This document shows, one piece after another, positions 23,677 through 61,608 of a DNA stretch of 64,000 nucleotides (positions within the stretch are counted from its first letter, which is position 1; each line of letters begins with the position of its first letter). The notes beneath the pieces are model-generated. The model was not told the DNA's origin and did not search any database. It saw only the letters and a program-made list of their open reading frames with translations. This DNA comes from Deltaproteobacteria bacterium (GTDB taxonomy: Bacteria; Myxococcota; JACRCW01). The stretch spans positions 24,915 to 88,914 of the forward strand of contig JACRCW010000038.1 of NCBI GenBank assembly GCA_016218805.1. The letters are read 5' to 3'. The translations under genes and the position numbers were made by a program.

Positions 23677-23678
23677 GG

Positions 23679-33320: not shown

Positions 33321-33336
33321 AGCAACCCCCGTGCCG
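33321..33336 (-). promoter_or_regulatory. Sigma-54 (-24/-12) promoter upstream of fliL operon
   Basis: On the - strand: CGGCACG-GGGG-TTGCT (consensus TGGCACG-N4-TTGCW), with exact spacing. About 12 nt separate it from the GGAGG SD of fliL. It sits in a 147-nt gap after motB. Confidence 0.65.
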
Positions 33337-38173: not shown

Positions 38174-38832
38174 GGAGCCTCCGTGGGCGCGGTCATCTCC
38201 TCCGCAACCGCGACGGCGGACGAAGCGCCCATGGACGCGAGGATGGCGCCCGCCTGGCGCGCAGGAAGTTCCTTCAGCACCGCGGCGGCGACCCGGCGGT
38301 CAAGCTTCTCCAGGATCACCGCCGCCTGCCTTGGCTTCACCGTTTTCAAGCTCCGGGTCAGCGCTCCCACCTGTGACGGCGCCGGGCCGCCGCGCGCTGC
38401 CGCCGCACGCTTGGCCGGTTCGGACTCCGGCAGCGGGGGTGCGGGCGCCGCAACAGGCGGCGGCGCGGAAGCAGGACCGGGACACGCAGCCTGACGCGCC
38501 GCCAACGCCTCAATGAGGGCGGCAAGCCGGTCGCTCTCCGCGCGCAGTTGCTGCCGTGCAGTCTCCATCTGACCAACGAGTTCCGGCGCTTCCGCAGCTC
38601 CGGGCTCCCCACCGTGCGGGCGCGCGCGGGCCTGCAGCGCGGCCTGGAACGTCGCGGGGGACACGGCGGGGCGGCCCGCTGGCGGTGGGCTGTTCAGGGG
38701 CGCCACCGGGGGCGCGCCGGGCGCGGGAACCGGCGCCACGTGCGGTGCCGCGGGCGGGGTGGGCGTGGCTGTGGGCGCTGAGGCCAGCAGCCAACCGGAG
38801 CACGTCCACAGTGCAGCAAGGGGGCTAGGCAC
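38170..38832 (-). CDS. MotE/YlxF-like (MgtE_N-type) flagellar protein
   Basis: GTG 38832 lies 4 nt after GGAGGA. Signal-like N-terminus, Pro-rich spacer, coiled coil. C-terminal LKTVKPRQAAVILEKLDRRVAAAVLKELPARQAGAILASM matches the MgtE_N/MotE repeat. Confidence 0.6.
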   Translation of the reverse strand: MPSPLAALWTCSGWLLASAPTATPTPPAAPHVAPVPAPGAPPVAPLNSPPPAGRPAVSPATFQAALQARARPHGGEPGAAEAPELVGQMETARQQLRAESDRLAALIEALAARQAACPGPASAPPPVAAPAPPLPESEPAKRAAAARGGPAPSQVGALTRSLKTVKPRQAAVILEKLDRRVAAAVLKELPARQAGAILASMGASSAVAVAEEMTAPTEAP

Positions 38833-43808: not shown

Positions 43809-44237
43809 TCAGCGCATGATGTCCAGCGCGCGCTGTGCCAGTGCCTTCACGGTTTCAAACGCGGTCGCGTTCGCCTCGTACGAGCGCGTCGCGCCCAACA
43901 GGTTCACCACCTCATGCACGGGGTCCACGTTGGGCAGCGCCACAAACCCCTGGCCGTCCGCATCTGGATGTCCTGGCAGGTACACGCGGCGCGGGGCCCC
44001 GGGGTCTTCCACCACGTCTGCCACCCGGACGCCCACGGGCGCCTCGGGACCCATCACCTGGCCCAGCGCGCCCTCAAACGACGCCGCCTCCAGCACCGGG
44101 TCGCGGCGGCGGTAGGGCTGGCCGTCCGCTCCGCGCGTGCTCTCCGCGTTGGCAAGGTTGGCGGTGGCAATGTCCAGCCGCGTCCGCTGCGCGGTGAGGC
44201 CGGAGGCGCTGACCTTGAGGGCGGAGAAGAAGTCCAC
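43809..44237 (-). CDS. flgC: Proximal rod protein FlgC
   Basis: FSALKVSASGLTAQRTRLDIATANLANAEST and C-terminal HEVVNLLGATRSYEANATAFETVKALAQRALDI. Confidence 0.95.
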   Translation of the reverse strand: MDFFSALKVSASGLTAQRTRLDIATANLANAESTRGADGQPYRRRDPVLEAASFEGALGQVMGPEAPVGVRVADVVEDPGAPRRVYLPGHPDADGQGFVALPNVDPVHEVVNLLGATRSYEANATAFETVKALAQRALDIMR

Positions 44238-44744: not shown

Positions 44745-46118
44745 TCATTTCCGTGGCACCTGCGGTCCGTCTGCCGACAACGTGGCGGCACGGGCAGTCA
44801 GGGTCCTGGCAAGCGCCAGGTCCAGCAGCGCGCGTCCTTCGGCCGCGGGGGCCGCAGCGGTGGCAACGGGCGGAGCGGCGGGCGGGGCCAGCAGCGCCTG
44901 GTCCAGGGCCGGCCAGGGCGCCCGGCGGGTGACCCGCGCGCCCAGTTCTTCCTCGGCCCAGTCTCGCACCGAACGGGCGCGCACCCGGTCGCCGTCAGCC
45001 AGGAAGAGTTCCACGACACGGGCCAGGTGTGGCGCCAGGGCTTGCCGGGGCACGGAGGCGGTGTGGTGCGCGAGCAGCGTCGCTCCCAGCGCGGGCACCC
45101 CCAGGGACGCCAGCCGCTCTGCCGCAGCGCGCGCCGCGTCCAACGCCAGCGGGGAGGGTTCCTCCAGCGCCACCAATGCCAGGTACGCTTCCAGCGCGGC
45201 CACCTGCCGGGGTTTGTCCGTGCCGGCGGTTCCCGCCAGGCCCCGCGCCAGGATGGCGTGGCAGGCGCTCCAGCTGCCTGCACACGGCCGCGCAGCCACC
45301 TCACTCCGGGCCGCCAGGTACAACGCCCCGTCCTCCGGGCGGGCGGACAGCAGGGCGCGCGCGCGCGCGATGCGCAACGCCAGCAGGGGCTGAATTTCCG
45401 GGGGGGCGCTCACCAGCGACGGCGGCACTCCGCCGACGACGGGAGCGCACTCGCCGCCCAGCTCGCACCGGGCCACGCGCACCAATGCCAGCCAGCGCCC
45501 GGTGCCAAACGCACGCTGGTACCACAGCAGCGCCTTGCCTGGTTCGCCCGCCTCCTCCGCCAGCGACCCCAGCAGCACCGCCGCTTCCGCGGCGTCCGGC
45601 CCGTCCACGCGCGCCAGCGCCCGCGCGGCATCCGACACGCGGCCGGCGTTGAGCGCACACGCGGCGCCCGCCAGCGCGGATGACCCGCCACAGCGGGCGC
45701 CGGTGACCAGTGCCGACCATAGCGACGGCAGGCGCCAGTGCAGGAGGTCCCGTGGGACGCCCCGGAGCGCCTGGATGTCCAGGTAGGTGCGGCCGCGGCG
45801 CCGGGTCAGTGCCACGTGCAACCGGTTGTGCACGCAGTGCAGCACCGCGGCCCCCCCGGACACCTCCGCGCGGGGACACAACGCGGACCGCGCGCGCACC
45901 GCGGCCACCACGCGGCCGGACGCGCCCGCCGCGTGGACCGTGACGGTGGAGGTGATGGCATCCACCGCCACGGGAACCGTAGGCGCCACGTCCACCGCGA
46001 GCGCCTCCAGGTGTTCCACGGACGTCAGCAGCGCGTTGCGCTGCACGCGGTGGCCTGGTGGCCACGGCAGCGCGGCCGCGCCTGCCACCACCAGCAGCGC
46101 CAACGCCGAGGTGATCAT
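44745..46118 (-). CDS. Hypothetical secreted protein (signal peptide, beta-rich N-domain, Ala/Leu-rich helical-repeat C-domain)
   Basis: 457-aa ORF. ATGA overlap with the upstream sigma-54 activator; ends 91 nt before flgB. N-terminus [17 protein letters not shown]. Multiple Cys residues and a TPR-like segment (AAVLLGSLAEEAGEPGKALLWYQRAF). I recognise no family. Confidence 0.6.
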   Translation of the reverse strand: MITSALALLVVAGAAALPWPPGHRVQRNALLTSVEHLEALAVDVAPTVPVAVDAITSTVTVHAAGASGRVVAAVRARSALCPRAEVSGGAAVLHCVHNRLHVALTRRRGRTYLDIQALRGVPRDLLHWRLPSLWSALVTGARCGGSSALAGAACALNAGRVSDAARALARVDGPDAAEAAVLLGSLAEEAGEPGKALLWYQRAFGTGRWLALVRVARCELGGECAPVVGGVPPSLVSAPPEIQPLLALRIARARALLSARPEDGALYLAARSEVAARPCAGSWSACHAILARGLAGTAGTDKPRQVAALEAYLALVALEEPSPLALDAARAAAERLASLGVPALGATLLAHHTASVPRQALAPHLARVVELFLADGDRVRARSVRDWAEEELGARVTRRAPWPALDQALLAPPAAPPVATAAAPAAEGRALLDLALARTLTARAATLSADGPQVPRK

Positions 46119-47263
46119 GCCGCGTGCGGCGCCGCGCCCGGAAGCATGGGCTCCGCCTCTTCCTCGCCGCCACGGCGCGCCGGCGCACCCGCCGCGCGTT
46201 CACGTCGGCGCAGCTTCTCCACCAGCGTGGTGCGCTGCAAGCCCAGCATGTGGGCGGCCAGGCGCTTGTTGCCGTGGCTTGCGGACAACGCGGCGTCCAC
46301 CATCACCGTCTCAAACCACTCCAGCAGCTCCGGCATCCGGCGCGGCAGACCGTGGCGCTCCAGGACGCCGCTCAGCGCGCCGCGGAACTCGCCCAGGGCT
46401 TCCTCACCGGAGCCGGCCAGCGGCATGGTCGGCGGGACGGGCACTGCCGGGGTCAGCGTGGCCGGCACCGGGGTGACGGACAGCACGCCGCGCAGCTGCG
46501 GAAACTGCGCCAGGTCCGCCAGCGTCACCGTCCCGGACTCCACAATCACGCTCATGCGCTCGACCAGGTTCTCCATCTCGCGCACGTTGCCCGGCCAGCT
46601 GTAGCGGCACAGCGCCTCCACCACGGCCGCGTCCACCGGGCGGTCCTGGCCGCGCTCCGCCCAGAAGGTCTGGAACAGCAGCGGCACGTCCATGGGGCGC
46701 GCGCGCAGCGGAGGCAGCTCCACCGGGCACACGAACAGCCGGTAGTACAGGTCACGGCGGAAGCGGCCGGCGGCGGCGTCCGCCTCCAGGTCCCGGTGCG
46801 TGGCGGCGATGACCCGCACGTTGGTGGCCACGCTCTCCACGCTGCCCACCGGTTCGTACGCGCGCTCCTGCAGCACGCGCAGCAGCTTCACCTGCATGGC
46901 CAGCGGCAGTTCGCCCACCTCGTCCAGGAACAGCGTGCCGCCCTCCGCCGCCGCAAACCGCCCCTTGCGGTTGCGCGTGGCGCCGGTGAACGCGCCGCGC
47001 TCGTAGCCAAAGAACTCGCTCTCCAGCAGTGTCTCCGGGATGGCGCCGCAGTTGACCGGGACAAACGGGCCGGACGCGCGCGAACTGTGCTCGTGGAGGA
47101 ACCGCGCAAAGACCTCCTTGCCCGTGCCCGTCTCGCCGGTGAGCAGCACGGTGGAGTCGCTGCGGGCCACGCGCGCGCAGATGTGCAGCAGCGCGGCCAC
47201 GGGGGAGGACTCAGCGTGGATGATGCGCGGGGCGCGGAAATGCGTCCGGGGGAGGTTCTCCAT
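46115..47263 (-). CDS. Sigma-54-dependent transcriptional activator lacking a receiver/sensor domain
   Basis: 382 aa that starts directly in the AAA+ core: [24 protein letters not shown] loop (ERGAFTGA), [20 protein letters not shown]-terminal Fis-type HTH ([20 protein letters not shown]). Confidence 0.9.
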
Positions 47264-47268
47264 GGGGG

Positions 47269-48369
47269 CTACTCCTGGACACCGGCAAGGGTCAGTGACC
47301 GGCGGAAATCTGTGGGAGACGCAGCGTGCAGCGCGGCGTGGTCCGCGGCCACCAGGCCCTCCCGGACGAGCGCCATCAGCGACTGGTCAAACGTGTGCAT
47401 GAGCTGCTCGTTGGACTTCTCCAGCACTTGCGGGATGCCGGAGACCTTCTGCGGGTCCCGGATGGCTTCCTTGATGCGGTAGTTGTTCACCAGCACTTCC
47501 GTGGCCAGCACACGCTGGCGCAGGCCCCGGCGCTGCAGCAGCAGCTGGCTGATGGAACCGCGCAGGCAGTCCGCCAGGCGCGCGCGCACCGCCGGCTGCT
47601 CCACGGGAGCGTGCATGCCAATGATCCGCTGCACCGTCTTGAGCGCGCTGCCTGTGTGGAACGTGGAGAACACGGCGTGGCCGCTCTCCGCCGCGTGCAT
47701 CACCACCTCCAGCGTCTCCGTGTCCCGGATCTCGCCAATGAACATCACGTCCGGGTCCTCGCGCAGCGCCGCCTGCAGCCCCTCGCGGAAGGTGGGCACG
47801 TCCCGGCCCAGCTCGCGCTGGGTGACGCAGGACCGTGTGCCCTGGAAGCGGTATTCGACGGGGTCCTCCAGCGTGAGGATGTGCAACGTCTCCTGGGCCG
47901 CCATGTGGTGCAGCATGGACGCCAGCGTTGTGGACTTGCCGCTGCCGGTGGCCCCCGTCACCAACACCAGGCCGGGTTCCGCCGTGGCCAGCGCCTTGAC
48001 CACCGGCGGCAACCGCAGTTCCTGGAACGCAGGCACGCGGAACGGGATGGCCCGCAGGCACACGCCCAGCTGCGCGCGCTCGCGGAACGCGTGCACGCGG
48101 AAGCGCGCGGTGTTGGCCTGCTCATAGGAATACTCAAAGCTGGAGGCGCCCGCAGGGACGGGCGTGTCACCCACGGTGAGGCGGATGACCTCCTGCACGG
48201 TGGCCGCGCTGAGCGGTGGGCACTCCAGCCGGATCAGCTGGCCGCCGGCACGCATGAACGGCGGCGCGCCCGTGCGCAGGTGCAGGTCCGACCCGCCGTG
48301 CGTCACCACCGCGGTGACCAGCTGGTTGAGCAGGTCCACGGAGGTGCTGATGGGGATGGCCACGCTCAT
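47269..48369 (-). CDS. PilT-family (type IV pilus retraction-type) hexameric ATPase
   Basis: 366 aa. Walker A GATGSGKST, Asp box/Walker B DPDVMFIGEIRD, His box GHAVFSTFHT, and a C-terminal NNYRIKEAIRD PilT-like motif. The stop lies 5 nt before the activator ATG. Confidence 0.85.
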   Translation of the reverse strand: MSVAIPISTSVDLLNQLVTAVVTHGGSDLHLRTGAPPFMRAGGQLIRLECPPLSAATVQEVIRLTVGDTPVPAGASSFEYSYEQANTARFRVHAFRERAQLGVCLRAIPFRVPAFQELRLPPVVKALATAEPGLVLVTGATGSGKSTTLASMLHHMAAQETLHILTLEDPVEYRFQGTRSCVTQRELGRDVPTFREGLQAALREDPDVMFIGEIRDTETLEVVMHAAESGHAVFSTFHTGSALKTVQRIIGMHAPVEQPAVRARLADCLRGSISQLLLQRRGLRQRVLATEVLVNNYRIKEAIRDPQKVSGIPQVLEKSNEQLMHTFDQSLMALVREGLVAADHAALHAASPTDFRRSLTLAGVQE

Positions 48370-48419: not shown

Positions 48420-49541
48420 TCACCCCGCCAGGCGCGTGACGACCCGCACCTGCTGTCCGGCGGGCACTCCGTATCCCACCAGGCGGTCCACCAGGCCCGG
48501 TGTCACCTCGTGCCCGCGGGCCACCAGCAACACCCCGCTGGGGCCGCGGATGTCCTCCACCAGCGCCATCCCCGGGCGCAGCTCCACCAGCCGCACCTCC
48601 AGCACACGCTCCGCCGCACGCGCCCCGCCGGAATCCAGGAACGCGTCCAGCACCTTGGGATCGTACAACCCGTGGCGGTCGCGCAGCGTCGCCGCCACCG
48701 TGGCCGCGTCCAGCCCGCGCGCCTCCAGCACGTCGTAGTCCAGCGCCACCTTCAGGATGCGCGCCCCCAGGCACGGCGGTCCGGCGGGGTCCTGCAGTGA
48801 CTGCTCCATCCCCTCCAAAGCCGCCCGCACTGCCTCCATACGCGGGAGCTTCTCCAGCAGCTCCGCCGCCACGCGCGGCACGTGTGCCACCTGGCGCTGC
48901 TCGTCCACGGACAGCGGCCGGCCCAGGTAATGCCGCTCCGCCGTGGCCGGCGGCAGCGTGATGCAGCCCACCTGGGACAGCAGCGCCGCCACCTCAATGG
49001 TCCACGCGTCCGTGAGCTTCAGCCACGCTGCCGTGCGCAACGCGTGGTCCTTCATGCGCGCCGCCCGCCCAAACCCCACAGGGCTGGCCAGCGCCAGCAC
49101 GTCCGCCAGCATCTTCACTGCGCCGCGCAGCGTCTGCTCCAGCAGCACCCGCTCCGCCGTCACAAGCCGGTGCTGCTCGGCGCCCGCCAGCATGGCTGCC
49201 ACCAGCTGGTCCGGCGGGCAGGGCTTGGTGAGGAAGCGGAAGATGTTGCCCTCATTCACCGCTTTGATGGCCGCGTTCATGTCCGTGTAGCCGGTCAACA
49301 GCATCCGCACCGTGTCCGGCGCCGTCTCGCGGACGCGGGACAGCAGCGTCGCCCCGTCCATCCCGGGCATGCGCATGTCCGACAGCAGCACCGCAAAGGG
49401 CCCGTCGCGCGCCACCACCTCCAGCGCCTGCGGGCCGCTGGTAGCGCTGTGCACGTCAAAGCGGCGCCGCAGGTGCAGCGTCACGCCGTCAATAAGCGCC
49501 TGCTCGTCATCCACCAGCAGGACCCGCGGCAGCACGGTCAT
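48420..49541 (-). CDS. Response regulator: receiver + degenerate HD-GYP-like output domain
   Basis: REC: VLLVDDE...LLSDMRMPGMDG...FLTKP. The output domain aligns to HD-GYP, but AALLSQVGCITLP replaces ..HDIGK.., and I saw no HHE/GYP motif. ATGA overlap with the upstream gene. Confidence 0.7.
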   Translation of the reverse strand: MTVLPRVLLVDDEQALIDGVTLHLRRRFDVHSATSGPQALEVVARDGPFAVLLSDMRMPGMDGATLLSRVRETAPDTVRMLLTGYTDMNAAIKAVNEGNIFRFLTKPCPPDQLVAAMLAGAEQHRLVTAERVLLEQTLRGAVKMLADVLALASPVGFGRAARMKDHALRTAAWLKLTDAWTIEVAALLSQVGCITLPPATAERHYLGRPLSVDEQRQVAHVPRVAAELLEKLPRMEAVRAALEGMEQSLQDPAGPPCLGARILKVALDYDVLEARGLDAATVAATLRDRHGLYDPKVLDAFLDSGGARAAERVLEVRLVELRPGMALVEDIRGPSGVLLVARGHEVTPGLVDRLVGYGVPAGQQVRVVTRLAG

Positions 49542-50755
49542 GGCGCCACGCCTCCCAGCTCGCGCTTGGCAATGGCCAGCCACGCCTCCAGTTGTTGCTC
49601 GCCCATCCCTGCGGCCGCCAGCCACTCCGGGTCGGGACCCGGGGCGGGGTCCCCGGGGAACAGGTGCGCCGTGGCCAGCGCGGCGCCCACGTGCACCGCC
49701 TCGGCCACGCCAAACTCATCCCGCCGCAGGCGCCGCGCATCGTGGTGGAACGCCACCGCTTCGACGATGGGATACGGCAGGCCCCACAGCCCCAGCAGGT
49801 AGGCACCCTCTTCGGCATGGCTGAAACCGTGCTGGCGGACCTCCACCGCCCACGGTGGAATGCCCTCCTCCGCGGCCGTGGCGTGGATCAGGGACCAGAT
49901 GGCAGGGCGGCGCGTGGCGGCCACCAGGTCGCCAATGTCATGCAGCAGACCCGCCGTGAAGGCGTCATTGGCGGCCGCCGTCTGCGTCAACAGGCGGCGT
50001 GACACGGCGGCCGTGGCCAACGCGTGGCGCTGGAACGCGTTGGGGTCAAACCCCGCCGCCGCCTCGCCGCCGCGCATGGAGTGGAACACGTCCAGGGACA
50101 GCGCCAGGGACCGGATCATGTGGAGCCCCAGGTACGCCACCGCTTCCTGCACGGACGTGACGGGGCGGGCCAGCCCAAAGAACGCCGAGTTCACGACGTG
50201 GAGAACCCGGGCGGCCAGCGCCACGTCAGATTCCACGATCCCAGCGACGTCCCTGGCGGACACACCGGGGTCCATCAACGCCTGGGTGAGCGCCTGATAG
50301 GTCCGCGGCACCGAGGGCAGCGTGGACACCTCGCCCATGCGCTCGCGCAGCGTCTCATCCTGCAGCAGGTTCTGCAGGTCACAAGCGCGCTGCACCACCG
50401 TCTTGAGGTGCGCCGGGTTGCAGGGCTTGGAGAGGAACTGGTGCGCTATGGGCACCGCGCGGATGGCGGAGGCCATGTCCGCGTGCCCGGACAGGATGAT
50501 GCGCGCGGACCGCGGCGAGCGCGCCTGCACCGCCTTGAGCAGCGCGGACCCGTCCATGCCGGGCATGCGCATGTCGGACACCACCACGTCAAAGGCGGTG
50601 CGCTCCATCAATGCCAGCGCCGCCTCGCCCCCATCGGCAAAGTGCATCTCCCAGGCGCCCCGCTGGGACCGCAGCAGGTCCCGCAGGCCGTGCAGCACGT
50701 GCGGTTCGTCGTCCACAAACAGTACCCGCCGGCGGGTGACCAGGGGCGCGCTCAT
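49538..50755 (-). CDS. Response regulator: receiver + HDOD domain
   Basis: REC: VLFVDDE...VVSDMRMPGMDG...FLSKP. HDOD-like: LPSVPRTYQALTQALMDP..., VLHVVNSAFFGL, LLHDIGDLV. Confidence 0.8.
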   Translation of the reverse strand: MSAPLVTRRRVLFVDDEPHVLHGLRDLLRSQRGAWEMHFADGGEAALALMERTAFDVVVSDMRMPGMDGSALLKAVQARSPRSARIILSGHADMASAIRAVPIAHQFLSKPCNPAHLKTVVQRACDLQNLLQDETLRERMGEVSTLPSVPRTYQALTQALMDPGVSARDVAGIVESDVALAARVLHVVNSAFFGLARPVTSVQEAVAYLGLHMIRSLALSLDVFHSMRGGEAAAGFDPNAFQRHALATAAVSRRLLTQTAAANDAFTAGLLHDIGDLVAATRRPAIWSLIHATAAEEGIPPWAVEVRQHGFSHAEEGAYLLGLWGLPYPIVEAVAFHHDARRLRRDEFGVAEAVHVGAALATAHLFPGDPAPGPDPEWLAAAGMGEQQLEAWLAIAKRELGGVAP

Positions 50756-52350
50756 GACGGCTCCGCCCGCCCGTGCACGGGCAGGTGCACGTGGAACGTG
50801 GTCCCCTTCCCCAACTCGGAATCAAAGTGGATGCGGCCGCCATGCTTGTCCACAATGATGCTCCGCGCGATGGCCAACCCCTGGCCCGTGCCCTTGCCCA
50901 CCTCCTTGGTCGTGAAGAACGGGTCAAACACGCGGCTGCGGATGGCCTCGGGAATGCCCGTGCCGGTGTCGGCAATGCTGATGTGCACGTGGTCGCCCTC
51001 CAGGCGGCTGCGCACGGTGATGCGCCCGCGCGCGCCCGTGGCCTTCATCACGTCACCCACGGCGTGCGCCGCGTTGACCAGCAGGTTCAGGAACACCTGG
51101 TTGAGCCCGTTCACCCGGCAGATGACCGGCGGCAGCTCGCCCAGGTCCTGTTCCACGTCCGCCACGTACTTGATCTCATTCCGCGCGACGACGAGCGTTG
51201 CCTCCAAGGCGCGGTTCAGGTCCGTGCTGGTGGGCGCATCCCCGCCCGGGTGCCCGAACTCCTTCATCGCCCGGACAATGGTTGCCACGCGCTCCACGCC
51301 GTCCAGCACGCGCGTCACCGCGGCGGGCGCGCTCTCTTCAATATAGGGCACGTCCAGGGCCGCTTCGCCCTCTTTCAGCGCCGCCACCTCCGCGGGGAGG
51401 CCCTCCCGCACACGCTCGGCGAAAGCCCGGTAGCGCCCCAGCATGGCAATGAGGTCACCCAGGGCGCCGCCCAGGAAATGCGCGCTGTCACCGACAAACT
51501 GGATGGGCGTGTTGATCTCATGCGCAATGCCCGCCGCCAGCGTCCCAATGGCCACCATGCGGTCAGACTCCAGCAGCCGCGTCTCCAGCTGGCGGCGCTC
51601 CGTCAGGTCTCCCACCGTGCCCAGCACCGCCGGTCCGCCGTCAAAGAAAGACGGGATGAGCGACACTTCTGCCAGCATCACCGCACCGGTGACGCGCACC
51701 AGGCGCCACTCCTGTGACAGCGGCTCCCGCCCGTCGCCCGCGGCCGCCAACGCGGCGGCCACTGCGTCGCGCTGGTCGGGCACCACCAGGTCCAGAACCG
51801 GTCGGGTCAGCAGCTCGGCCTGGTCGGTGTAGCCCAGGGACTGCACCAGTGACGGGTTCACGTACACAAACCGGCCATCACGCTGGACCGCGATGCCAAT
51901 GGGGAGATGATCCGTCAGCGCATGGAAGCTGGCTTCCCAGGCGCGCTGTTTCTCCGCGGCGCGGCGGAACGCGCTGATGTCCCGCTGGATGGTGACCAGG
52001 TTGGTCGTCCGTCCGTCGCGCCCGCGGACCGGGGAGGTGGTGCAGCGGGCCAGGTAGGGCTCCCCGGATGCGCGCAGGCACCACATTTCGCCGTGCCACG
52101 CGCGGCCGGCCCGCAGGGTCTCGGCAATGACGGCCACATCCTTGGAGGTGGTCAGCGGGGACACCAGGGTCATGCAATCCACTCCCAGCACCTGCTCCAG
52201 GGAGAAGCCGGTGAGCCGGTACCAACTGTCATTGGCATAGACAATGTGCCCATCCGCCGTGGTGATGGTGATGGCATCATCCACGCTGTCCAGTGCCGCC
52301 GCCTTCACGGCGGGGTCACAGGCGGTCTGGCACGGCGGGACGGCATTCAT
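50752..52350 (-). CDS. Cytoplasmic PAS-PAS sensor histidine kinase
   Basis: Two PAS-like segments. H-box GIAHEINTPIQFV; N/G boxes NLLVNAAHAV, DTGTGIP and GKGTGQGLAI. No TM segment seen. Confidence 0.85.
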   Translation of the reverse strand: MNAVPPCQTACDPAVKAAALDSVDDAITITTADGHIVYANDSWYRLTGFSLEQVLGVDCMTLVSPLTTSKDVAVIAETLRAGRAWHGEMWCLRASGEPYLARCTTSPVRGRDGRTTNLVTIQRDISAFRRAAEKQRAWEASFHALTDHLPIGIAVQRDGRFVYVNPSLVQSLGYTDQAELLTRPVLDLVVPDQRDAVAAALAAAGDGREPLSQEWRLVRVTGAVMLAEVSLIPSFFDGGPAVLGTVGDLTERRQLETRLLESDRMVAIGTLAAGIAHEINTPIQFVGDSAHFLGGALGDLIAMLGRYRAFAERVREGLPAEVAALKEGEAALDVPYIEESAPAAVTRVLDGVERVATIVRAMKEFGHPGGDAPTSTDLNRALEATLVVARNEIKYVADVEQDLGELPPVICRVNGLNQVFLNLLVNAAHAVGDVMKATGARGRITVRSRLEGDHVHISIADTGTGIPEAIRSRVFDPFFTTKEVGKGTGQGLAIARSIIVDKHGGRIHFDSELGKGTTFHVHLPVHGRAEPS

Positions 52351-52676
52351 CAGTGCACCTCAAGGTCCGCGCTCCCGCCCCGCGGCGGACCATGTCTGCA
52401 CCCGGGCCATCGGCACTGCCGGCCTTCCCGGTAAGGCGCCCGGGCTGCGTGCTGCGCCCGGCGACGGGCGGCGGTGTTGCACGGAGCGGGCGTCCACAGC
52501 GTGGTGCGGTGTGGTCCATCAGGGCACGCAACGGGGCGGCTGTGACAACGGGCACCGACGGCAGCGGCCTGCTCCGCCGGGCTGGCTGGCAGGTAACGCT
52601 TGATCAGGGCGGGCGCGGACCCGCTCGCGGAACCTGGGGCCGCGCGGGGCCAACGCGCATGCATGAACCGGGCGCC

Positions 52677-53089: not shown

Positions 53090-54691
53090 TCAGCCCGCCG
53101 CCAGGATGGCAGTGCGCGTGTCCACGCCCGCCGCGGGGAGTTCAATGGTGACCAGTGTTCCGCTCCCCGCGGTGGACCGCAGCGTCATGCGGCCACCGTG
53201 CTTCTTGATGATGTTCCGGGACACGGCGAGCCCCAGGCCCAACCCCTGGCTGACCGGTTTGGTGGTGAAGAACGGGCTGAACACGCGGGACACCAGCGCC
53301 TCCGGGATACCGCGTCCGTTGTCCTTGACCTCCACCACCACGCTGGAACCGCGCTGCATCCCCCGGATGGTGATCTGACCGGCAGCGTTGCCGTCCATCG
53401 CCTCGCCCGCGTTTGCCAGCAGGTTCACCAACACCTGCACCAGGTCACCCGCGGTGCCGCGCACTTCCAGGTCATTGGGCACCTCCACCTTGACGCGCGC
53501 CTTGCTCCGCAGCGTGCCCGCCGCAATGCGCACGGCGGACTGCACCGCCACATCCAGGGGCAGCAGCGCGTCCGGCTCGTCCAGGTTCATGCGCGCCAGC
53601 GCGTGCAGGTCCCGGACAATGTCCCGCACCTTCCCGGCGCCGCTCTCCGCGTCGCGCAGCGCGCTGCGGATTTCATCCAGGTTGGCGGCCGGGCGCCCCA
53701 GCTGCGCCAGCGCGTACTGCACGTTGTTCAGGACGTATGAAATGGGATTGTTCACGTCGTGCGCCACGCCAGCGGCCATCTGCCCCACGGTGACGTACTT
53801 GTCGGCCGCCCACACGCGCTCGCGGATGTCCTGGGTATCCAGCGCCAGTGCCGCCTCCGCGGCCAGCAGTTCGGCGCGGCGCAGGTCCTCGTCGCCAAAC
53901 TCGGACTCCACGCGGATGCGGTTGAGGCACAGCACGCCGCGCAACTCGTCCTGGTGGACCAGGGGGACCACCAGCGCGGAGCGCATGCGGCCGTTCAGCG
54001 CCCCCAGCGTGGCCGCGTCCGGGTCCAGCCCCGCCAGGCTGGTGGCTCCCAGCCGCCCGTCGTTGACCAGCACGGTGCGGCGTTCCAGCGCCGCGCGCCC
54101 GGCAATGCGCTGGCCCAGCTGGGTGAAGTTGTCGTCGCGCGCCCCGGGGGAGCAACGGACGGAATGCGCTACGTAAAGCCGGTCGTCACCCAGCGTGGGC
54201 AGCATCAGGCAACCGTCATCCGCCGCCAGGTACCGCAGCGCGGTCTCCAGAATGCGCCGGTGCAACTCCGCCGCGCCCACGCTGGCCAGCAGCGTGGCCA
54301 ACGCATTGGGGCCCGCGGACATCCGTTGCTCGTGGCGGGCCATGGCCCGTGTCAGGGCGGGGGACAGCGCAGGCTCCGCGGCGTCCCCCGGGATGACCGC
54401 CAGCACACCCGCCTGCACGCACCACAGCGCCAGCGGCGGGTCCAGCTCCGGCACGCCCAGCACAATGTCCAGGTCTGCGTTGGCCGCGCGCGCGGCCTCC
54501 AGCCAGCGCAAGGCGGGCGCCGCACCGGCCGCCGCGTCCACCCGGAGCACCACCGCATGCACCGGTGCATCTGTGCCGGTGGGGACGGCGTCTAGCAGGG
54601 ACTCCACGCAGCGCGCGTGGACCCGCCCGGTATCCAGCACCTTCAGGACCGCGTCACGCCACGCCGCACAACCCGCCACGAGGAAGTTCAT
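53090..54691 (-). CDS. GAF-domain sensor histidine kinase with N-terminal receiver-like region
   Basis: H-box GVAHDVNNPISYV, then NLLANAGEA, DNGRGIP and GLGLGLAV. The central region is GAF-like. The start overlaps the upstream EAL gene by 38 nt, so the start is uncertain. Confidence 0.75.
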   Translation of the reverse strand: MNFLVAGCAAWRDAVLKVLDTGRVHARCVESLLDAVPTGTDAPVHAVVLRVDAAAGAAPALRWLEAARAANADLDIVLGVPELDPPLALWCVQAGVLAVIPGDAAEPALSPALTRAMARHEQRMSAGPNALATLLASVGAAELHRRILETALRYLAADDGCLMLPTLGDDRLYVAHSVRCSPGARDDNFTQLGQRIAGRAALERRTVLVNDGRLGATSLAGLDPDAATLGALNGRMRSALVVPLVHQDELRGVLCLNRIRVESEFGDEDLRRAELLAAEAALALDTQDIRERVWAADKYVTVGQMAAGVAHDVNNPISYVLNNVQYALAQLGRPAANLDEIRSALRDAESGAGKVRDIVRDLHALARMNLDEPDALLPLDVAVQSAVRIAAGTLRSKARVKVEVPNDLEVRGTAGDLVQVLVNLLANAGEAMDGNAAGQITIRGMQRGSSVVVEVKDNGRGIPEALVSRVFSPFFTTKPVSQGLGLGLAVSRNIIKKHGGRMTLRSTAGSGTLVTIELPAAGVDTRTAILAAG

Positions 54692-55856
54692 TCCCGTCGC
54701 CCCTCTCGTCCCGCCCCTGGGTGGAAGCCACCAGCACTGGACCCGGCAATTCCAGCGTGGGACGTCCAAAGTGGTACCCCTGCAGCAGGTGTGCGCCGCT
54801 CGCCCGCACCACCTCCGCCTCCTCCTCGCATTCAATCCCCTCGGTGATGACCGTGGTCCCCGTGGCCTCACCAAAGCGGCACAGCATCTCCAGCAGGCGC
54901 CGCTTGCGCGGGCTCTGGTGCACGTTGCGCACAATGCTCATGTCCACCTTGAGGAAGAGCGGGTCCAACTCGGCCAGCACGCTGAGGGAGTTGTAGCCCG
55001 ACCCTACGTCATCCACCGCGATGGGGAACCCGCGGTCACCCAGCAGCTTCACGCTGGTCTCCCACTGCTCCAGCTCCGTGACCGCGCTGCGCTCGGTGAT
55101 CTCCACCACAATCCGCCGCTCCGCGCCGCGCCAGTGGTCCAGGCGCCGCCGCAACGCCTCGGTATCCTCCAGTTCCCGCGGGTGCAGGTTGACAAACAGC
55201 CGCACGTCCGGTGGCACCTTCTCCATCCACGCGCACGTGAGCCGCGCCACCGTCTCCGCCACGTCCGCCACCCGGTCGCAGCGCTCGGCCGCGTCCAGGA
55301 TCTGCATGGGTCCCTTCAGCACCGGATGCGTGCTGCGCAGCAGCAGTTCGTACGCAAACAGCTCACTACCCATCGCCTGCACAATGGGCTGCACGGCCAG
55401 CCGTGCGGCGCCGGCCAGTGTTTCGGTCAGGGCCTGGTGCAGCGCTGCATCCGCCTCCCGCGCGCGCAGCCCCAGCAGCGTCTCCATCTGCCGGTGCGCG
55501 TGCAGTGACTCATCCACCATGCGCGTCAGCTGCGCCTCATCAAACGGCTTGGTCAGGATCCGCGTCACTTCCCCGCAGTTCACCGCCTCCGTGAGCATGG
55601 GGACGGCCAGGGAGCCGGACATCAGCACCCGCGCGCACGCGGGCTGCTTCAGGCGGATCTCGTTGAGCACCCACAGCCCGTCCGGCGGCGGGATGCCGTA
55701 ATCCACCAGGGCCACGTCAAACCGGTCCTGCGCCAGCGCCGCCACCGCGCCCAGGCCGTCCACCGCACTCCGCGGCCGGTGCCCTCCCGCCGCAAGGATC
55801 CGCTCCACCATCCGGCACAGTTCGGGCTGGTCATCCACCACAAGCACGGCGGCCAT
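54654..55856 (-). CDS. Response regulator: receiver + EAL phosphodiesterase domain
   Basis: REC: VLVVDDQ...VALVDYGIPPPDG...ILTKP. EAL motifs YELLLR, FVNLH, VVEITER, AVDDVGSGYNSL, FLKVD, ITEGIE and LLQGYHFGRP are all present. Confidence 0.85.
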   Translation of the reverse strand: MAAVLVVDDQPELCRMVERILAAGGHRPRSAVDGLGAVAALAQDRFDVALVDYGIPPPDGLWVLNEIRLKQPACARVLMSGSLAVPMLTEAVNCGEVTRILTKPFDEAQLTRMVDESLHAHRQMETLLGLRAREADAALHQALTETLAGAARLAVQPIVQAMGSELFAYELLLRSTHPVLKGPMQILDAAERCDRVADVAETVARLTCAWMEKVPPDVRLFVNLHPRELEDTEALRRRLDHWRGAERRIVVEITERSAVTELEQWETSVKLLGDRGFPIAVDDVGSGYNSLSVLAELDPLFLKVDMSIVRNVHQSPRKRRLLEMLCRFGEATGTTVITEGIECEEEAEVVRASGAHLLQGYHFGRPTLELPGPVLVASTQGRDERGDGNELPRGGLCGVA

Positions 55857-55938: not shown

Positions 55939-57414
55939 TCAGTGGATGTCCTCCTCGGTTTCGCCGCCCCGCGGCTCCGCCCCGGCGCGGCCACGGCTGT
56001 CCTGCAGGCCGTGCCGCTTGAGCATCCGCCACAGCGTCTTGCGGTCCAGACCCGCGTGGGCGGCCGCATCCGACATGCGGTCAAATGCCGCCAGCAACGT
56101 CCGGAAATACTCAAGATCAAACGCCTGCAGCGCCGCGTTGCGCGCCTCCATGTATCCCTGCGCGGGTGGCGCAGCGCGGCCATCTGCCGCGGGTGCGGCC
56201 GGCGGCGGCGCGCGCGGTGGCGGCGCGGCCACGCTGTCCTCCAACGCCAGGTCCTGAGCGCCAATGGCCGGTCCAATGCACACGGCTGCCGCACTGAACA
56301 CCGTGGCCTGCAGCTCGCGGATGTTGCCCGGCCAGGTGTGCCGCAGCAGCAGGTCGGTGGCCTCAGGCGAGAACGCCACCGCGGAGCTGCCCACCTCCTC
56401 GCGCGCGCGCTCCAGGAACAGGCGTGCCAGCATCAGGATGTCGTCAGGGCGCTCGCGCAACGGGGGCAGGCGCACGCGCGCCACCTTCAAGCGGTAATAG
56501 AGGTCTTCGCGGAACTGCCCATCCCGCACCATCTGCTGGAGATCCCGGTGGGTGGCCGCCACCACGCGCACATTGACGCGCACCGGTTGCACACAGCCCA
56601 CCGGGCGCACCTCTTTCTCCTGCAGCACCCGCAGCAGCTTGGCCTGCGCCCCCGCCGCCAGGTCACCAATCTCATCCAGAAACAGCGTGCCGCCATCCGC
56701 CGCACGCACCAGGCCGGCGTGGTCCTTCTGCGCGCCGGTGAAGCTGCCTTTTTCGTGTCCAAACAGCTCGCTGTCCACCAGGCTGTCCGTCAGCGCCGAG
56801 CAGTTCACCGCCACCATGGGCCCCGCCGCGCGCCGGCTGAGCGCGTGCAGCGCGCGCGCCACCAACTCCTTGCCGGTTCCCGTTTCCCCAACCACCAGGA
56901 CCGGCAGCTCAGTCCGGGCCAGCTGCGGCAGAGCGCCCACCGCCTGCAGGAACGCGGGTGACCGCCCCACCAGACCCGGCAGCTTGCACTCCGCGCGCGG
57001 CGCCACCTCGGTGAGCCCACGCGCCAGCGCCAGCTGCGCGGCCAGCGTGTGGGCATGCTTCAACAACAACTCCAGTTCCGGCAGCGCAAACGGCTTGCGC
57101 AGGAACAGCGTGGCGCCCTCCACCAGCAGCCGCTCAATGTCGTTAAGGCTGGCCACCGCGCTCATCACCAGCACCGGGATCCACGGCTGGCGCTGCCGCA
57201 CCCGCTTCACCACGTCATGCCCCGTGGCCCCGGCCATGCGGATGTCTGTCACCACCAGATCAAACGCATCCAAGTCGTCCAACAGGATGAGCGCTTCATC
57301 GCCGGACGCGGCCGTCGTGAGGTCAAATCCTCCCATGGAATTCATGATCCGCTCGAACACGCGCAGGATGGGCGCTTCGTCATCCACCACCAGGCAACGA
57401 ACAACCTGTTCCAT
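55939..57414 (-). CDS. NtrC-family sigma-54-dependent response regulator
   Basis: REC: CLVVDDE...VVTDIRMAGATG...FLRKP. AAA+: [43 protein letters not shown]-terminal HTH (AAHAGLDRKTLWRMLKRHG). Confidence 0.9.
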   Translation of the reverse strand: MEQVVRCLVVDDEAPILRVFERIMNSMGGFDLTTAASGDEALILLDDLDAFDLVVTDIRMAGATGHDVVKRVRQRQPWIPVLVMSAVASLNDIERLLVEGATLFLRKPFALPELELLLKHAHTLAAQLALARGLTEVAPRAECKLPGLVGRSPAFLQAVGALPQLARTELPVLVVGETGTGKELVARALHALSRRAAGPMVAVNCSALTDSLVDSELFGHEKGSFTGAQKDHAGLVRAADGGTLFLDEIGDLAAGAQAKLLRVLQEKEVRPVGCVQPVRVNVRVVAATHRDLQQMVRDGQFREDLYYRLKVARVRLPPLRERPDDILMLARLFLERAREEVGSSAVAFSPEATDLLLRHTWPGNIRELQATVFSAAAVCIGPAIGAQDLALEDSVAAPPPRAPPPAAPAADGRAAPPAQGYMEARNAALQAFDLEYFRTLLAAFDRMSDAAAHAGLDRKTLWRMLKRHGLQDSRGRAGAEPRGGETEEDIH

Positions 57415-57577
57415 GGCCGCGCATCCTGTCGCGCGGGACCGCGGTTTGCCAATGCCCCGCGGCTGCGTGGCCGCGCGGCCGCACGCCGGGCAGCGCGAGG
57501 CCCGCGCGCCACGCGCAACAGGGTGACTCACCGCCCCCAGCCTCAGTGATCCCGCCGATCTCCGCGCTGCGGGGATC

Positions 57578-57593
57578 TGGCCCCGCGCGTGCT
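57578..57593 (+). promoter_or_regulatory. Candidate sigma-54 (-24/-12) promoter upstream of second fliA-like gene
   Basis: TGGCCCC-GCGC-GTGCT with correct GG-N10-GC spacing, about 35 nt upstream of the proposed TTG start. Divergent from the NtrC-type regulator. Confidence 0.45.
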
Positions 57594-57628
57594 CTGGGCG
57601 CTTGCACCACGTGCCCCAGAGGTGTCCC

Positions 57629-58342
57629 TTGTCCATTGCCCGCCTCACCTTCCACCGAGCCACGCCCCGTCCCCCGCGCGATGACGGCTCCGCCGCGGTC
57701 CAGGCCCACGGCGCGCTGTTGCAGCGCTGCGTGCGCGTGGCCGTGGCGCGCACCCGGATGTGGCACCTGCGGGATGACTTCTGGGTGGCCGGCGCCATGG
57801 CGTTGCTGGACGCCCGGGGACGCTGGGAGCCCGCCCGCGGCGTGCCGTTCGCAGTGTTTGCGGAGCGCCGCATCCGTGGCGCCATTGTGGATGAGCTGCG
57901 GCGCCATGATCACCTGCCGCGCCGCCTGCGCCTGCGCGCCAACACCGTGCGGCACGGGCGTGACGGCCTGCGCATGACGCTGGGACGCGAACCCACCGGT
58001 GACGAGGTCTCCGCGCACGTGGGGATGGCGCCGGACCTGCTGAGCCGGATTGACGCGGTGGCCACACCGCCCGCGCCATTGGACGAACTTCCGGCCGTGG
58101 CACAGGACGGGGACACGGCGATGGAGCACCTGCAACGCCGCCAGGACCGCGAAGCGGTGGCCATGGCCGTGTCGACCCTGCCGGACCGCCTGCGGGGTCT
58201 GGTGCGCATGCGTTACGTGGAGGGCCTCTCCAGCAGTGAAATCGCCCGGCGGATGGGTGTGAGCGAACCGCGCGTCAGCCAACTGCACGCCAGCGCCATC
58301 AAGCGCCTGCGCTCGGCCATGGGCGGTCAGCGCCGTTTGTGA
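57629..58342 (+). CDS. Second FliA/WhiG-family (sigma-28-like) sigma factor
   Basis: Paralogous to the fliA at 22984-23676: MALLDARGRWEPARGVPFAVFAERRIRGAIVDELRRHDHLPRRLR and LVRMRYVEGLSSSEIARRMGVSEPRVSQLHASAIKRL. Start taken at the TTG 4 nt after AGAGGTG; TTG 57602 and GTG 57611 are alternatives. Confidence 0.8.
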   Translation: MSIARLTFHRATPRPPRDDGSAAVQAHGALLQRCVRVAVARTRMWHLRDDFWVAGAMALLDARGRWEPARGVPFAVFAERRIRGAIVDELRRHDHLPRRLRLRANTVRHGRDGLRMTLGREPTGDEVSAHVGMAPDLLSRIDAVATPPAPLDELPAVAQDGDTAMEHLQRRQDREAVAMAVSTLPDRLRGLVRMRYVEGLSSSEIARRMGVSEPRVSQLHASAIKRLRSAMGGQRRL

Positions 58343-58412
58343 ACCCAATCAAACCCAACTCCAGGCTTCAGGCGGTGGACCATGGCGGCGGCCCTTCCCC
58401 GGCACGCAGGTT

Positions 58413-58829
58413 TCAACGCCCAGGGGCCGCCCGGACAAACGCCGCAAATACGTGGTCCTCCCCTGCGATGTGATTGACGAGCAGCCCTACCAGCCACCGG
58501 TTGAGCTGGATCACCAGCTCCTCGCCGGCGCCTTCTTCCGCGAGCAAACCTGACAGTTCGCTCAGGCTGCGGAGCAAGAACTGGTGCGATTCCCTGTGTG
58601 CGCTCCGGTTGGGGTAGCGGATCACCTCCTGAAGACGCTCCTCTGCGGCAAAGTGCTCGACGACAAGACCCTGCATGAACACCAGCAGGGTCTTTGCCTC
58701 CTCCGCGCCCTTTCCCTTGACGCACGCCTCAAACAAGGCGTTGGCGCGCCGGAAGATCTCCCTGTGTTGCTCGTCCACCTCTTCAACCCCGGTCAAGAGG
58801 CCGGGCGGCCAATCGAAACGGACTGTCAT
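58413..58829 (-). CDS. Bacteriohemerythrin-like protein
   Basis: 138 aa. [35 protein letters not shown] and NHIAGEDH look like hemerythrin His/Glu iron ligand motifs. Confidence 0.75.
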
Positions 58830-59187: not shown

Positions 59188-61608
59188 ATGCGCGCCGCAG
59201 GTGATCTGGTGGACCGCTCCAGCGTGTTGGTGCTGGAACGGATCAGCCGCGCCGCCGCCGCCGCATGCATGGCGGTTGGGGCGGTGGTCCTCCTGGGCTG
59301 GGCGCTGAGCATCCCCGTTCTCACCAGCCTGCACAGTGACCTCATTGCCATGAAGGCCAACACGGCGCTGGGGTTGTTCCTGATTGGCGTGGCCGTGTGG
59401 CGCGTCCCCGCTGGGACGGGGCGGCCCCGCTGGCTCCTGGCCGCGTGCGGGGCGGTGCTTGCCTCCCTGGGCGGCTCCACGCTGGCGGAAGACGTGGCCG
59501 GGCTGGACCTGGGAATTGACCAGTTGTTGTTCCAGGAGGCACCGGGCGCCATCGGGACGGTGTCTCCCGGGCGGATGTCTCCCATCACCGCATTGTGTTT
59601 CCTGTTGCTGGGCGCGGCGCTCCTGCTGGTTGACGCGAAAACCAAGGAGGGATGGCGTCCAGCGCAGGCCCTGGCACTGGGCGCGGGAGCCCTTTCGTGC
59701 CTGGCCGTTGCCGGGCACCTGTACGACGTGGACGCGCTGTGGAGGACCGGTGCCTACACCCCAATGGCCATCCACACCGCCATCTCCGTGGCCATTGGCA
59801 GCTTTGGGCTCCTGGCCGCGCGGCCCCTGGACGGCGTGATGGCGGTGGTGACCAGCGCCACCAGCGCGGGAGCGCTTGCGCGGACACTGGTCCCCTCGGT
59901 GATGACGGCGCCATTCGTGATTGGCGGACTGCGAACCGCCGGCGTCCACACTGGCCTGATGGGTGACAGTTTTGGTGCGGCGCTCGTCGCCGTTGCCAAC
60001 GCCGTATGCATCACGGGCCTGGCGTGGTGGGCCGTGTTGTGCATGCACCGCTCGGAACTGGCGCTGCAACAGGCTGGCGAGTCACTGCGCCTCAGCGAAG
60101 AAAAATACCGCACGATGTTCGAAAACGCCGCCGTGGGGATGTTCCGCGCGCGCCTGGATGGGAACGCAATTATCGACGCCAACCGCAAGAGCGCACAGAT
60201 TCTCGGCACCACGCCGGAGCAGATGATCGGCAAGCCGGCTGCGGGCTTCTATCAGGACAGGGCCCGGAGTGAGGCGTTCGCGCGTGCGTTGCAGACCCAG
60301 GGGGCGGTTGAGGAGTTTGAACTGGAATTGGTCCATGCCACCGGTCAGTCACGGACCGTGCTGGTCTCCGCCCGCGCCGACGTCGTCCAGGGATTCGTTG
60401 AGGGTACCCTGGTAGACGTGACGGAGCGCAAGCAGGTGGCTGCCGCACTGGCCGCCAGCGAACTGCGCTTCCGCACGCTGGTGGAGCAGGCGTCGGATGG
60501 CATCGTCGTCATGGACCACAACGGGCGCTGCGTGGACGTCAACCCGGCCGCTTGCGCCATGCTGGGCTACACGCGTGAGGAGTTGCTCACCCAGAACCTG
60601 ACGGAGATGTTGGCGCCAGGACACCGCGCGGTCGCGCCGCTCCGGCTGCCTGAGGTCCCTGACGGAGAGACCGTCCGCACTGAGGGCGAGTTGCGCCGCA
60701 AGGACGGCCGGCACCTCAGCGTAGAACTCAGCGGCCGGATGCTGGCGGATGGCCGGTTCCAGGCCATTGTCCGTGACGTGTCCGAACGGAGGCACGCCGA
60801 GGCGGAACTGGCGCGTTCGCTGGCGGAACTGGAGCGCTCCAACAAGGAACTGGAGCAGTTCGCTTACGTGGCCTCGCATGACCTGCAGGAGCCGCTCCGC
60901 ATGGTCTCCAGCTACACGCAGCTGCTGGCCAAGCGATATGAAGGCCAGCTGGACGACAAAGCGACGTCCTACATTGCCTACGCCGTGGACGGTGCGGTGC
61001 GCATGCAGCGCCTGATCAACGACCTGCTGGCGTACTCGCGCGTGAGCAAGGGCAGTGCGCCCATGCAACCCGTGGACACCCACGCCGCGCTGGATGAAGC
61101 CCTGCGAAACCTCAAGACCGCCATGGAGGAGAGCGGCGCACAAGTCACCCATGACCACCTTCCCACGGTGCGCGCCAACGCCGCCCAGCTGACCCAGCTG
61201 TTCCAGAACCTGGTTGGCAACGCCATCAAGTTCCACGGGGCGTCTCCGCCGCGCGTCCACGTCAACGCTGTGGAGTCAGATGGGGGATGGCACTTCTCGG
61301 TCGCTGACAACGGCATCGGCATTGACGCGCGCTACGCGGAACGCGTCTTTGTCATTTTCCAGCGTCTCCACACGCGCCAGGAATACGACGGCACGGGAAT
61401 CGGGCTGGCCGTCTGCAAGCGCATCGTGGAGCGCCACGGCGGCCGGATCTGGTTCGAGTCCGAGTTGGGAAAGGGCACGACGTTCCACTTCACGGTCCCC
61501 AAGAAGGAAGGAAGCGCCCATGACAGCAACACCCAAAACCAAACCGATCGAGATCCTGCTGGTGGAGGACAACCCGGGAGACGTGGAGCTGGCGAAGGAC
61601 GCGTTTGA
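59188..61608 (+). CDS. Membrane sensor histidine kinase (multi-TM N-domain, two PAS, HisKA, HATPase)
   Basis: ATG 59188 lies 9 nt after GGGAGG (ATG 59137 is an alternative). About 7-8 hydrophobic helices and two PAS domains. H-box [32 protein letters not shown] and GTGIGLAVC. Confidence 0.85.

Follow-up and report, generated by a model that had tools for sequence, protein, structure and literature searches.

A duplicated flagellar sigma-28 gene beside an NtrC-type regulator in an uncultured Myxococcota member, and the case for its possible control by sigma-54

The 64,000-nt stretch of contig JACRCW010000038.1 analysed here (the window; 71% GC) originates from a groundwater metagenome and carries, besides a complete flagellar gene cluster with its sigma-28 gene fliA1, a second sigma factor gene of the FliA/WhiG family. 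This gene, fliA2, is located about 10 kb beyond the flagellar cluster within a block of two-component and cyclic diguanylate (c-di-GMP) genes and diverges from the gene of an NtrC-type enhancer-binding protein (EBP). The following features bear on the function and control of fliA2.

57629-58342, plus strand: fliA2, second FliA/WhiG-family sigma factor, 237 aa, TTG start, Sigma70 regions 2, 3 and 4
57618-57622, plus strand: Shine-Dalgarno-like AGAGG, 6 nt before the TTG start
57578-57593, plus strand: candidate -24/-12 element TGGCCCCGCGCGTGCT, GG-N10-GC spacing, 51 nt upstream of the TTG start; predicted transcription start at about 57603-57605
57415-57577: divergent intergenic region upstream of the candidate promoter, the expected place of an activator site
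55939-57414, minus strand: NtrC-type EBP, 491 aa, with REC domain, AAA+ sigma-54 interaction domain and Fis-type helix-turn-helix (HTH); Pfam Response_reg, Sigma54_activat and AAA_lid_14
54654-55856, minus strand: REC-EAL protein, downstream of the EBP gene on the same strand; Pfam EAL (E 3e-44) and Response_reg
53090-54691 (start approximate), minus strand: GAF-HisKA-HATPase histidine kinase, last of the gene string on the EBP side; Pfam GAF_2, HisKA and HATPase_c
22984-23676, minus strand: fliA1, canonical flagellar sigma-28 by domain and family hits, directly after flhF-flhG
17230-17532, minus strand: flgM, anti-sigma-28 factor, open reading frame (ORF) of 100 aa; Pfam FlgM at E 3e-4, below the cut-off

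The initial annotation had described the fliA2 product as a paralog of FliA1. This was borne out by BLASTP (57602/57629-58342 product against the 22984-23721 product), in which both shared 48% identity over 235 aa with an E value of 3e-64. Sigma70 regions 2, 3 and 4 were present in both proteins, in FliA2 above the Pfam gathering scores, and TIGR02479 (FliA_WhiG) was the best family for both, with 140.8 bits for FliA2 and 162.3 bits for FliA1. The curated cut-off of 189.6 bits was reached by neither; as the undisputed flagellar FliA1 also remains below it, this cut-off is too strict for the Myxococcota FliA clade. The closest solved structures to FliA2 were WhiG (the WhiG-type chains 6pfv and 6pfj were the best PDB hits) and FliA of E. 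coli, Aquifex and others. A tblastn search found no FliA-family gene in the window other than fliA1 and fliA2.

In neighbour-joining trees, FliA2 fell within the FliA clade of Myxococcota, which consists of proteins encoded after flhG in flagellar clusters. It did not fall among sigma factors of the SigB/F/G or RpoH types, nor among the ECF-like (extracytoplasmic function) or sporulation-type ones whose company the initial annotation had named as a refutation. Within this clade it belonged to a small subclade with FliA1, P0002, P0003, P0004 and P0005, and the smallest clade containing both paralogs comprised at most six tips in 59 of 100 bootstraps. The FliA2 branch was somewhat longer than that of FliA1. 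The searches coincide with this placement: among 5.8 billion public proteins, the best match besides the protein itself had 51% identity, nearly all top-ranked matches scored higher to FliA1, a few marginally higher to FliA2, and those with a readable genomic context were canonical fliA genes after flhG. A genome scan with FliA2 retrieved only distant FliA genes with at most 34% identity and no ortholog, and no ortholog appeared among the public proteins beyond a minor population of the same groundwater sample. By the trees and matches, FliA2 arose fairly recently, through a lineage-specific duplication of the flagellar sigma gene.

A duplicate without any close ortholog (none above about 51% identity among the 5.8 billion proteins) could be a redundant, decaying copy devoid of regulatory significance. 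The minor population provided a comparison. It is less abundant (depth of about 3-5 versus 23) and about 86% identical at the nucleotide level in the fliA2 region, and it is represented by low-coverage contigs from the deepest run of the source study (run X1) at positions 57540-57675 and 57927-58283. A 357-nt contig covering the latter interval, with 86% nucleotide identity, differed at 42 listed substitutions, distributed 9/4/29 over the three codon positions; 12 of 98 residues were changed, and the ratio of nonsynonymous to synonymous substitution rates (dN/dS) was 0.16 over the 98 codons. This is clear purifying selection, and it effectively rules out the decaying duplicate, which we regard as highly improbable. 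The ORF is moreover intact, its GC content at third codon positions (0.85) is native, and 50 of the 58 family columns with at least 90% conservation are kept. The start codon and the Shine-Dalgarno sequence are likewise preserved across both populations. FliA2 is thus very probably a functional sigma factor of the FliA clade.

A 169-nt contig of the related population, covering 57540-57675, also defined the start of the gene. It carried C instead of T at 57602, lacked one nucleotide at 57616 and had GTG in place of TTG at 57629, with AGAGG intact. These changes exclude upstream starts, so that the stretch before 57629 is non-coding and translation begins at 57629, as had been annotated.

The divergent regulator is complete, in agreement with its first description as a REC-AAA+-HTH activator: an alignment to the NtrC model spanned residues 8-466 including the C-terminal Fis-type HTH. 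In an alignment of its orthologs (P0122-P0130; 54-59% identity to the EBP of the window, next best protein 45%), the phospho-acceptor D57, Walker A and Walker B were invariant. The protein also has FLDEIG, the HTH AGLDRKTLWRMLKRHG and a GSFTGA loop, the variant of GAFTGA common to most of the orthogroup. Its recognition helix reads DRKTLWRMLKRHG, versus DRKSLYRLLKKHG in the orthologs; as three positions differ, a changed binding site is possible. The histidine kinase at the end of the same gene string is a candidate cognate sensor of the EBP. The REC-EAL protein, whose EAL signature residues were read by eye in the translation, is likely a c-di-GMP phosphodiesterase.

The genomic surroundings of the EBP orthologs connect this regulator family to FliA-like sigma factors. 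Eight distinct orthologous loci from other Myxococcota were read (L038 and L039 represent one locus), and in five of them (L038/L039, L040, L042, L044 and L045) a sigma-70-family gene, here called sigmaX, was found immediately upstream of the EBP gene on the same strand. A metagenome scan with the EBP yielded only paralogs (80 of 80 loci, at most 48% identity), which were used as background sequence only. The flanks of the sigmaX-EBP modules were unrelated from locus to locus and, as far as visible, free of flagellar genes. Three sigmaX proteins were scanned and proved FliA/WhiG-like, with 161-194 bits on TIGR02479. In L040 and L044, sigmaX and the EBP gene are separated by a small ORF (77-88 aa) that has no Pfam match. 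Since an alignment of the upstream regions with MAFFT was uninformative, sites were located by pattern and weight matrix; a -24/-12 element was found 45-73 nt upstream of the sigmaX start in four of the five loci (three good, one weak). The orthologous modules also share a 16-bp palindrome, GGGGCAYGCRTGCCCC, located 70-130 nt upstream of the promoter.

L038, 5174-7449: sigmaX-EBP module; element TGGACCGGTCATTGCG at -45 from the start, 7.9 bits; exact palindrome at 5059-5074
L040, 4805-7392: sigmaX-EBP module; element GGGCATGGCCGTTGCT at -52, 14.2 bits; exact palindrome at 4628-4643 (also 4594)
L042, 4196-6464: sigmaX-EBP module; degenerate version of the element; palindrome with 2-3 mismatches at 4045, 4079 and 4922
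L044, 3938-6479: sigmaX-EBP module; element GGGCACATGGGTTGCT at -73, 14.6 bits; palindrome with 2-3 mismatches at 3728
L045, 4131-6482: sigmaX-EBP module; element CGGCATGGCCGTTGCG at -51, 10.2 bits
L043: neighbour gene of the EBP with palindromes (2-3 mismatches) at 6606 and 6629 and CGGCACGGTTGGTGCT at -45

Only three matches to the palindrome with two or fewer mismatches occurred in 973 kb of unrelated loci, which makes it a good candidate for the binding site of this EBP family. The element in L043 indicates that -12 elements of the form GTGCT occur in the family.

FliA2 is not itself a sigmaX protein. The sigmaX proteins formed a clade of their own, sister to that of the flagellar FliA proteins; 99 of 100 bootstraps supported its monophyly and none included FliA2, and identities between sigmaX and FliA2 amounted to only 33-35%. 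FliA2 retains the motifs DHLPRRLR in region 2.4/3.0 and VSEPRVSQLH in region 4.2, where sigmaX has LPRRAR and VTESRV. Orthology of FliA2 and sigmaX was therefore ruled out by the tree and the signature motifs. FliA2 might nevertheless have taken over the role of sigmaX with this EBP family and direct a non-flagellar regulon, leaving the flagellum to FliA1 alone. Such a role would suit the pairing of the EBP orthologs with sigmaX on contigs lacking flagellar genes in the visible flanks, the location of fliA2 among signalling genes outside the flagellar cluster, the longer branch and the 8 of 58 conserved columns at which FliA2 differs. The DNA-recognition motifs of both regions are FliA1-like rather than sigmaX-like, and no candidate target promoters were identified for a separate regulon; we consider this explanation quite unlikely. 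Given these conserved motifs, the sigma-28-type promoters read by FliA2 are most likely those of FliA1 or a set overlapping with them, and the odds that the two regulons overlap appear even. The canonical sigma-28 consensus TAAA-N15-GCCGATAA had no match in the window, and thus neither a FliA-dependent promoter of fliA2 nor targets of FliA2 were defined.

The proposed connection between EBP and fliA2 runs through the element upstream of fliA2. The sequence TGGCCCC-N4-GTGCT, first noted for its correct -24/-12 spacing, is indeed present on the coding strand at 57578-57593. By weight matrix, TGGCCCCGCGCGTGCT ranked 15th of the 21,176 intergenic positions, and the loose pattern TGGC-N8-TGCW occurred 29 times in the window, mostly within genes. 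In 71% GC DNA the element is indistinguishable from chance by sequence alone. Three independent lines of evidence raise its credibility. The first is position: the fliA2 site at -51 falls in the range of the sigmaX promoters, where the chance of an 8-bit site inside such a 30-nt window is estimated at about 0.02. The second is the form of the site. Two relatives have a very strong sigma-54 promoter of flgF, TGGCAAG-N4-CTTGCT (17.2 bits; Vulgatibacter, L036, 9171, and L037, 9282). Its counterpart in the window, which occupies the corresponding position and precedes the flgF ATG by 37 nt, is the degenerate TGGC-N7-GTGCW form TGGCGCGCCGCGTGCA; this genome thus uses GC-enriched sites of this form like the one before fliA2. 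The third is conservation, as the 16-mer TGGCCCCGCGCGTGCT was unchanged in the related population, in which 6 of 41 other fully reported non-coding nucleotides had changed.

Several observations weigh against control of fliA2 by sigma-54 and the EBP. The element scored 8.1 bits, in comparison to 11.6-14.6 bits for the better-placed flagellar sites of the window and 10-14.6 bits for the good sigmaX promoters, and it departs from the consensus at -22 (C for A), -20 and -15. As good or better were 74 sites in the window versus about 65 in Markov shuffles, and an estimated 12-15% of intergenic regions of 214 nt would here contain such a site by chance; the weight matrix behind these scores is approximate, having been set up after the published consensus. 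The invariance of the 16-mer in the related population is weakly significant, with a chance estimate of about 0.14. The interval 57415-57577 revealed no conserved or convincing inverted repeat as an activator site, only low-complexity GC-rich repeats, and the palindrome GGGGCAYGCRTGCCCC is absent from the intergenic region, which has no match to GGGGC-N6-GCCCC and only half-site-like fragments. The analogy to the orthologous loci is indirect, for there the sigma gene lies in tandem upstream of the EBP gene and not divergent as here, and sigmaX is a different FliA-family lineage. No rpoN gene lies within the 64-kb window; we infer its presence in the genome from the two EBP genes and the sigma-54-type sites before flagellar operons. 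Finally, the sequencing runs found for the source groundwater metagenome appeared to be of DNA type, with no RNA runs among them.

An inverted repeat abutting the -24 element, GATCTCCGC-GCT-GCGGGGATC (57557-57577), was considered as an operator and rejected, since the related population has one extra nucleotide that breaks it.

These observations leave room for a functional sigma-28 paralog that is independent of the EBP and sigma-54: the -24/-12 match would be a chance occurrence in GC-rich DNA, the EBP would serve other targets, and fliA2 would be transcribed from an unrecognised promoter of sigma-70 type or one dependent on FliA1 or on FliA2 itself. In addition to the chance-level score and the lack of a family-type palindrome or clear activator site, the absence of a sigma neighbour in three of the eight orthologous EBP loci shows that the family has other targets, and a hexamer resembling the core of a sigma-28 -10 element, GCCGAT, is present at 57553-57558. 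No TAAA-like -35 was found at the proper distance from this hexamer, and the full sigma-28 consensus is unmatched in the window. A scan of 57300-58500 detected neither a sigma-70-like promoter nor a terminator, and no relevant Rfam family. The recurrent linkage of this EBP family with FliA-like sigma genes of two lineages is hard to explain by chance, and the position of TGGCCCCGCGCGTGCT matches that of the sigmaX promoters. We therefore regard EBP-independent expression as possible but less probable, and slightly favour a dependence of fliA2 on sigma-54 and the EBP.

Taken together, we favour the reading of fliA2 as a functional, lineage-specific sigma-28 duplicate under its own signal input through a chain of kinase, EBP and sigma-54, with a rough probability of 0.5. 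The initial annotation had proposed a self-contained cascade from a two-component signal through sigma-54 to sigma-28. This is borne out in part: the paralogy, intactness and purifying selection of fliA2, the completeness of the EBP, the presence and position of the motif and the recurrent linkage of the EBP orthogroup with FliA-like sigma genes are established; the motif is weak and the palindrome missing. We infer the pairing of kinase and EBP, the action of the EBP at the fliA2 promoter, the promoter specificity of FliA2 and its sensitivity to FlgM.

In the favoured scheme, the GAF histidine kinase (53090-54691) would sense a signal and phosphorylate the REC domain of the EBP (55939-57414), perhaps also that of the REC-EAL protein. 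The activated EBP would remodel sigma-54 RNA polymerase at TGGCCCC-N4-GTGCT (57578-57593), and a transcript starting near 57604 would have a leader of about 25 nt with the Shine-Dalgarno sequence ahead of the TTG start at 57629. FliA2 would then act at sigma-28-type promoters identical to or overlapping with those of FliA1, competing with it for core polymerase and possibly for FlgM; the flgM gene at 17230-17532 is the only one in the window, as had been noted. Late motility genes could in this manner be reached by an environmental signal instead of the flagellar assembly hierarchy, with the co-encoded REC-EAL protein possibly reducing c-di-GMP at the same time. In a broader version, an NtrC-type regulator acting on a sigma-54 promoter of a FliA/WhiG sigma gene would be a conserved, undescribed two-gene switch of Myxococcota, in which sigmaX would in this flagellated lineage have been replaced by a duplicate of the flagellar FliA, wiring a two-component signal and the linked c-di-GMP phosphodiesterase into the late flagellar regulon and bypassing the assembly checkpoint. 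We offer this version tentatively and consider it rather unlikely.

Cascades from sigma-54 to sigma-28 are classic in polar flagellates. In the hierarchy of the Vibrio cholerae type, FlrA and sigma-54 activate flhF-flhG-fliA, and the likeness to our locus lies in an EBP and sigma-54 driving sigma-28 and then the late genes. Vibrio has a single flagellar fliA inside the flagellar operon; here, fliA1 likewise comes after flhF-flhG, 25601-25616 being a possible sigma-54 site, and a second copy with its own REC-type EBP lies outside the cluster. A FliA/WhiG-family sigma factor away from flagellar duty is Streptomyces WhiG with its c-di-GMP-armed anti-sigma factor RsiG. The tie to c-di-GMP is shared, as fliA2 adjoins the REC-EAL gene, but no RsiG-like partner was seen and the phylogeny assigns FliA2 to the flagellar FliA proteins rather than to WhiG. 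LafK, a regulator of lateral flagella, is a sigma-54-dependent EBP. Together with LafS/FliA2, it represents in the dual-flagella bacteria Vibrio parahaemolyticus, Aeromonas and Shewanella piezotolerans a second sigma-28 paralog with its own regulator (PMC5178100). Both situations have two sigma-28 paralogs per genome, the second coupled to its own regulator. The LafS/FliA2 paralogs come with an entire second set of flagellar genes. No such set is visible in the 64-kb window, where fliA2 arose by recent duplication of fliA1 and is not part of a distinct system. In Actinoplanes missouriensis, FliA1, FliA2 and FliA3 are under the response regulator TcrA, and FliA1 and FliA2 share flagellar promoters, according to PMC13083903 (citing Hashiguchi et al. 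2020). The activation of FliA-family sigma factors by a response regulator is comparable; TcrA is not described there as a sigma-54 activator, and in this actinomycete sporangium development is under the control of the FliA paralogs. A further counterpart is the uncharacterised sigmaX-EBP module of Myxococcota, with an orthologous EBP, a FliA-family sigma partner and a -24/-12 element that precedes the sigma start by about 50 nt; it differs in its tandem arrangement, in the separate clade of sigmaX and in the palindrome GGGGCAYGCRTGCCCC, which is missing from the window.

Genomes with several FliA paralogs are known already, as are cascades from sigma-54 to sigma-28. New is an extra copy that arose recently from the sole flagellar fliA observed, situated outside the cluster beside a REC-type EBP whose orthologs pair with a different FliA-like sigma lineage. 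A selectively kept flagellar sigma duplicate beside its own signal-responsive activator is less usual, in a phylum famous for having no flagella. If the favoured reading is true, a checkpoint-controlled regulon would have gained a second, environment-driven entry by duplication of its sigma factor. The module of EBP and FliA-like sigma factor with a sigma-54 promoter, and in most loci the palindrome, points to an uncharacterised regulatory unit of uncultured Myxococcota, testable in tractable relatives.

The flagellar cluster extends over 11.7-47.4 kb on the minus strand, its gene content being assigned by Pfam.

11.7-47.4 kb, minus strand, first part: fliS, fliD, flagellin, flgL, flgK, FlgN-like gene, flgM, M23 peptidase, flgI, flgG, flgF
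11.7-47.4 kb, minus strand, second part: fliA1, flhG, flhF, flhA, flhB, fliR, fliP, fliO, fliN, fliM, fliL
11.7-47.4 kb, minus strand, third part: motB, motA, flgE, flgD, fliI, fliH, fliG, fliF, fliE, flgB/C rod gene
22234-22716, plus strand: FliJ-family gene between fliA1 and flgF, encoded opposite to all other genes of the cluster
46115-47386, minus strand: second EBP, located at the head of the cluster, consisting of AAA+ and HTH_8 and lacking a REC domain; Pfam Sigma54_activat and HTH_8

In the compared segment from fliM to flgL, the gene order is that of Vulgatibacter incomptus and another relative, and FlhA has 61-63% identity to the FlhA of these two. From this order and identity, the organism of the window is a distant, uncultured member of the Myxococcota. 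The location of fliA1 corresponds to that of fliA in both relatives, and flgM lies between the M23 peptidase and FlgN genes as it does there. The EBP at 46115-47386 matched NCBIfam models of FlbD, NifA and NtrC type, every one below its cut-off, and is probably the flagellar class-II (or master) activator and a separate sigma-54 input.

Matches of sigma-54 type with 9.8-14.6 bits were observed just upstream of the flagellar operon starts.

22148-22163, minus strand: -24/-12 match before flgF
33321-33336, minus strand: -24/-12 match before fliL
43825-43840, minus strand: -24/-12 match before fliE
44890-44905, minus strand: -24/-12 match before flgB
37346-37361, minus strand: -24/-12 match before flgD
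25601-25616, minus strand: -24/-12 match before flhF (hence fliA1)
13492-13507, minus strand: -24/-12 match before fliD

Sites of 11.6-14.6 bits precede fliD, fliL, flhF and fliE, among others, and weaker ones of 9.8-10.8 bits precede flgB and flgF; by these matches, most of the flagellar cluster may be sigma-54-dependent.

The inverted arrangement of the FliJ-family gene is also kept in Vulgatibacter incomptus, and the second relative (L037) has an unannotated ORF at that place. Two ORFs are located between fliI and flgD on the minus strand (37268-38173 and 38170-39057). One encodes 301 aa, is rich in Pro and Ala and occupies the position of FliK with no Pfam match; the other has a weak MgtE_N/FliG_M-like match at its C-terminus only. 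Genes of c-di-GMP-related signalling are dense near the cluster, encoding a GGDEF protein (9324-10820), REC-HD_5 (48420-49715), REC-HDOD (49538-50821) and the above REC-EAL protein (54654-55856), and PAS kinases are found at 50752-52359 and from about 59200 to 61608. A hemerythrin-domain gene (58413-58829, minus strand) converges on fliA2, and its product could sense O2, NO or iron.

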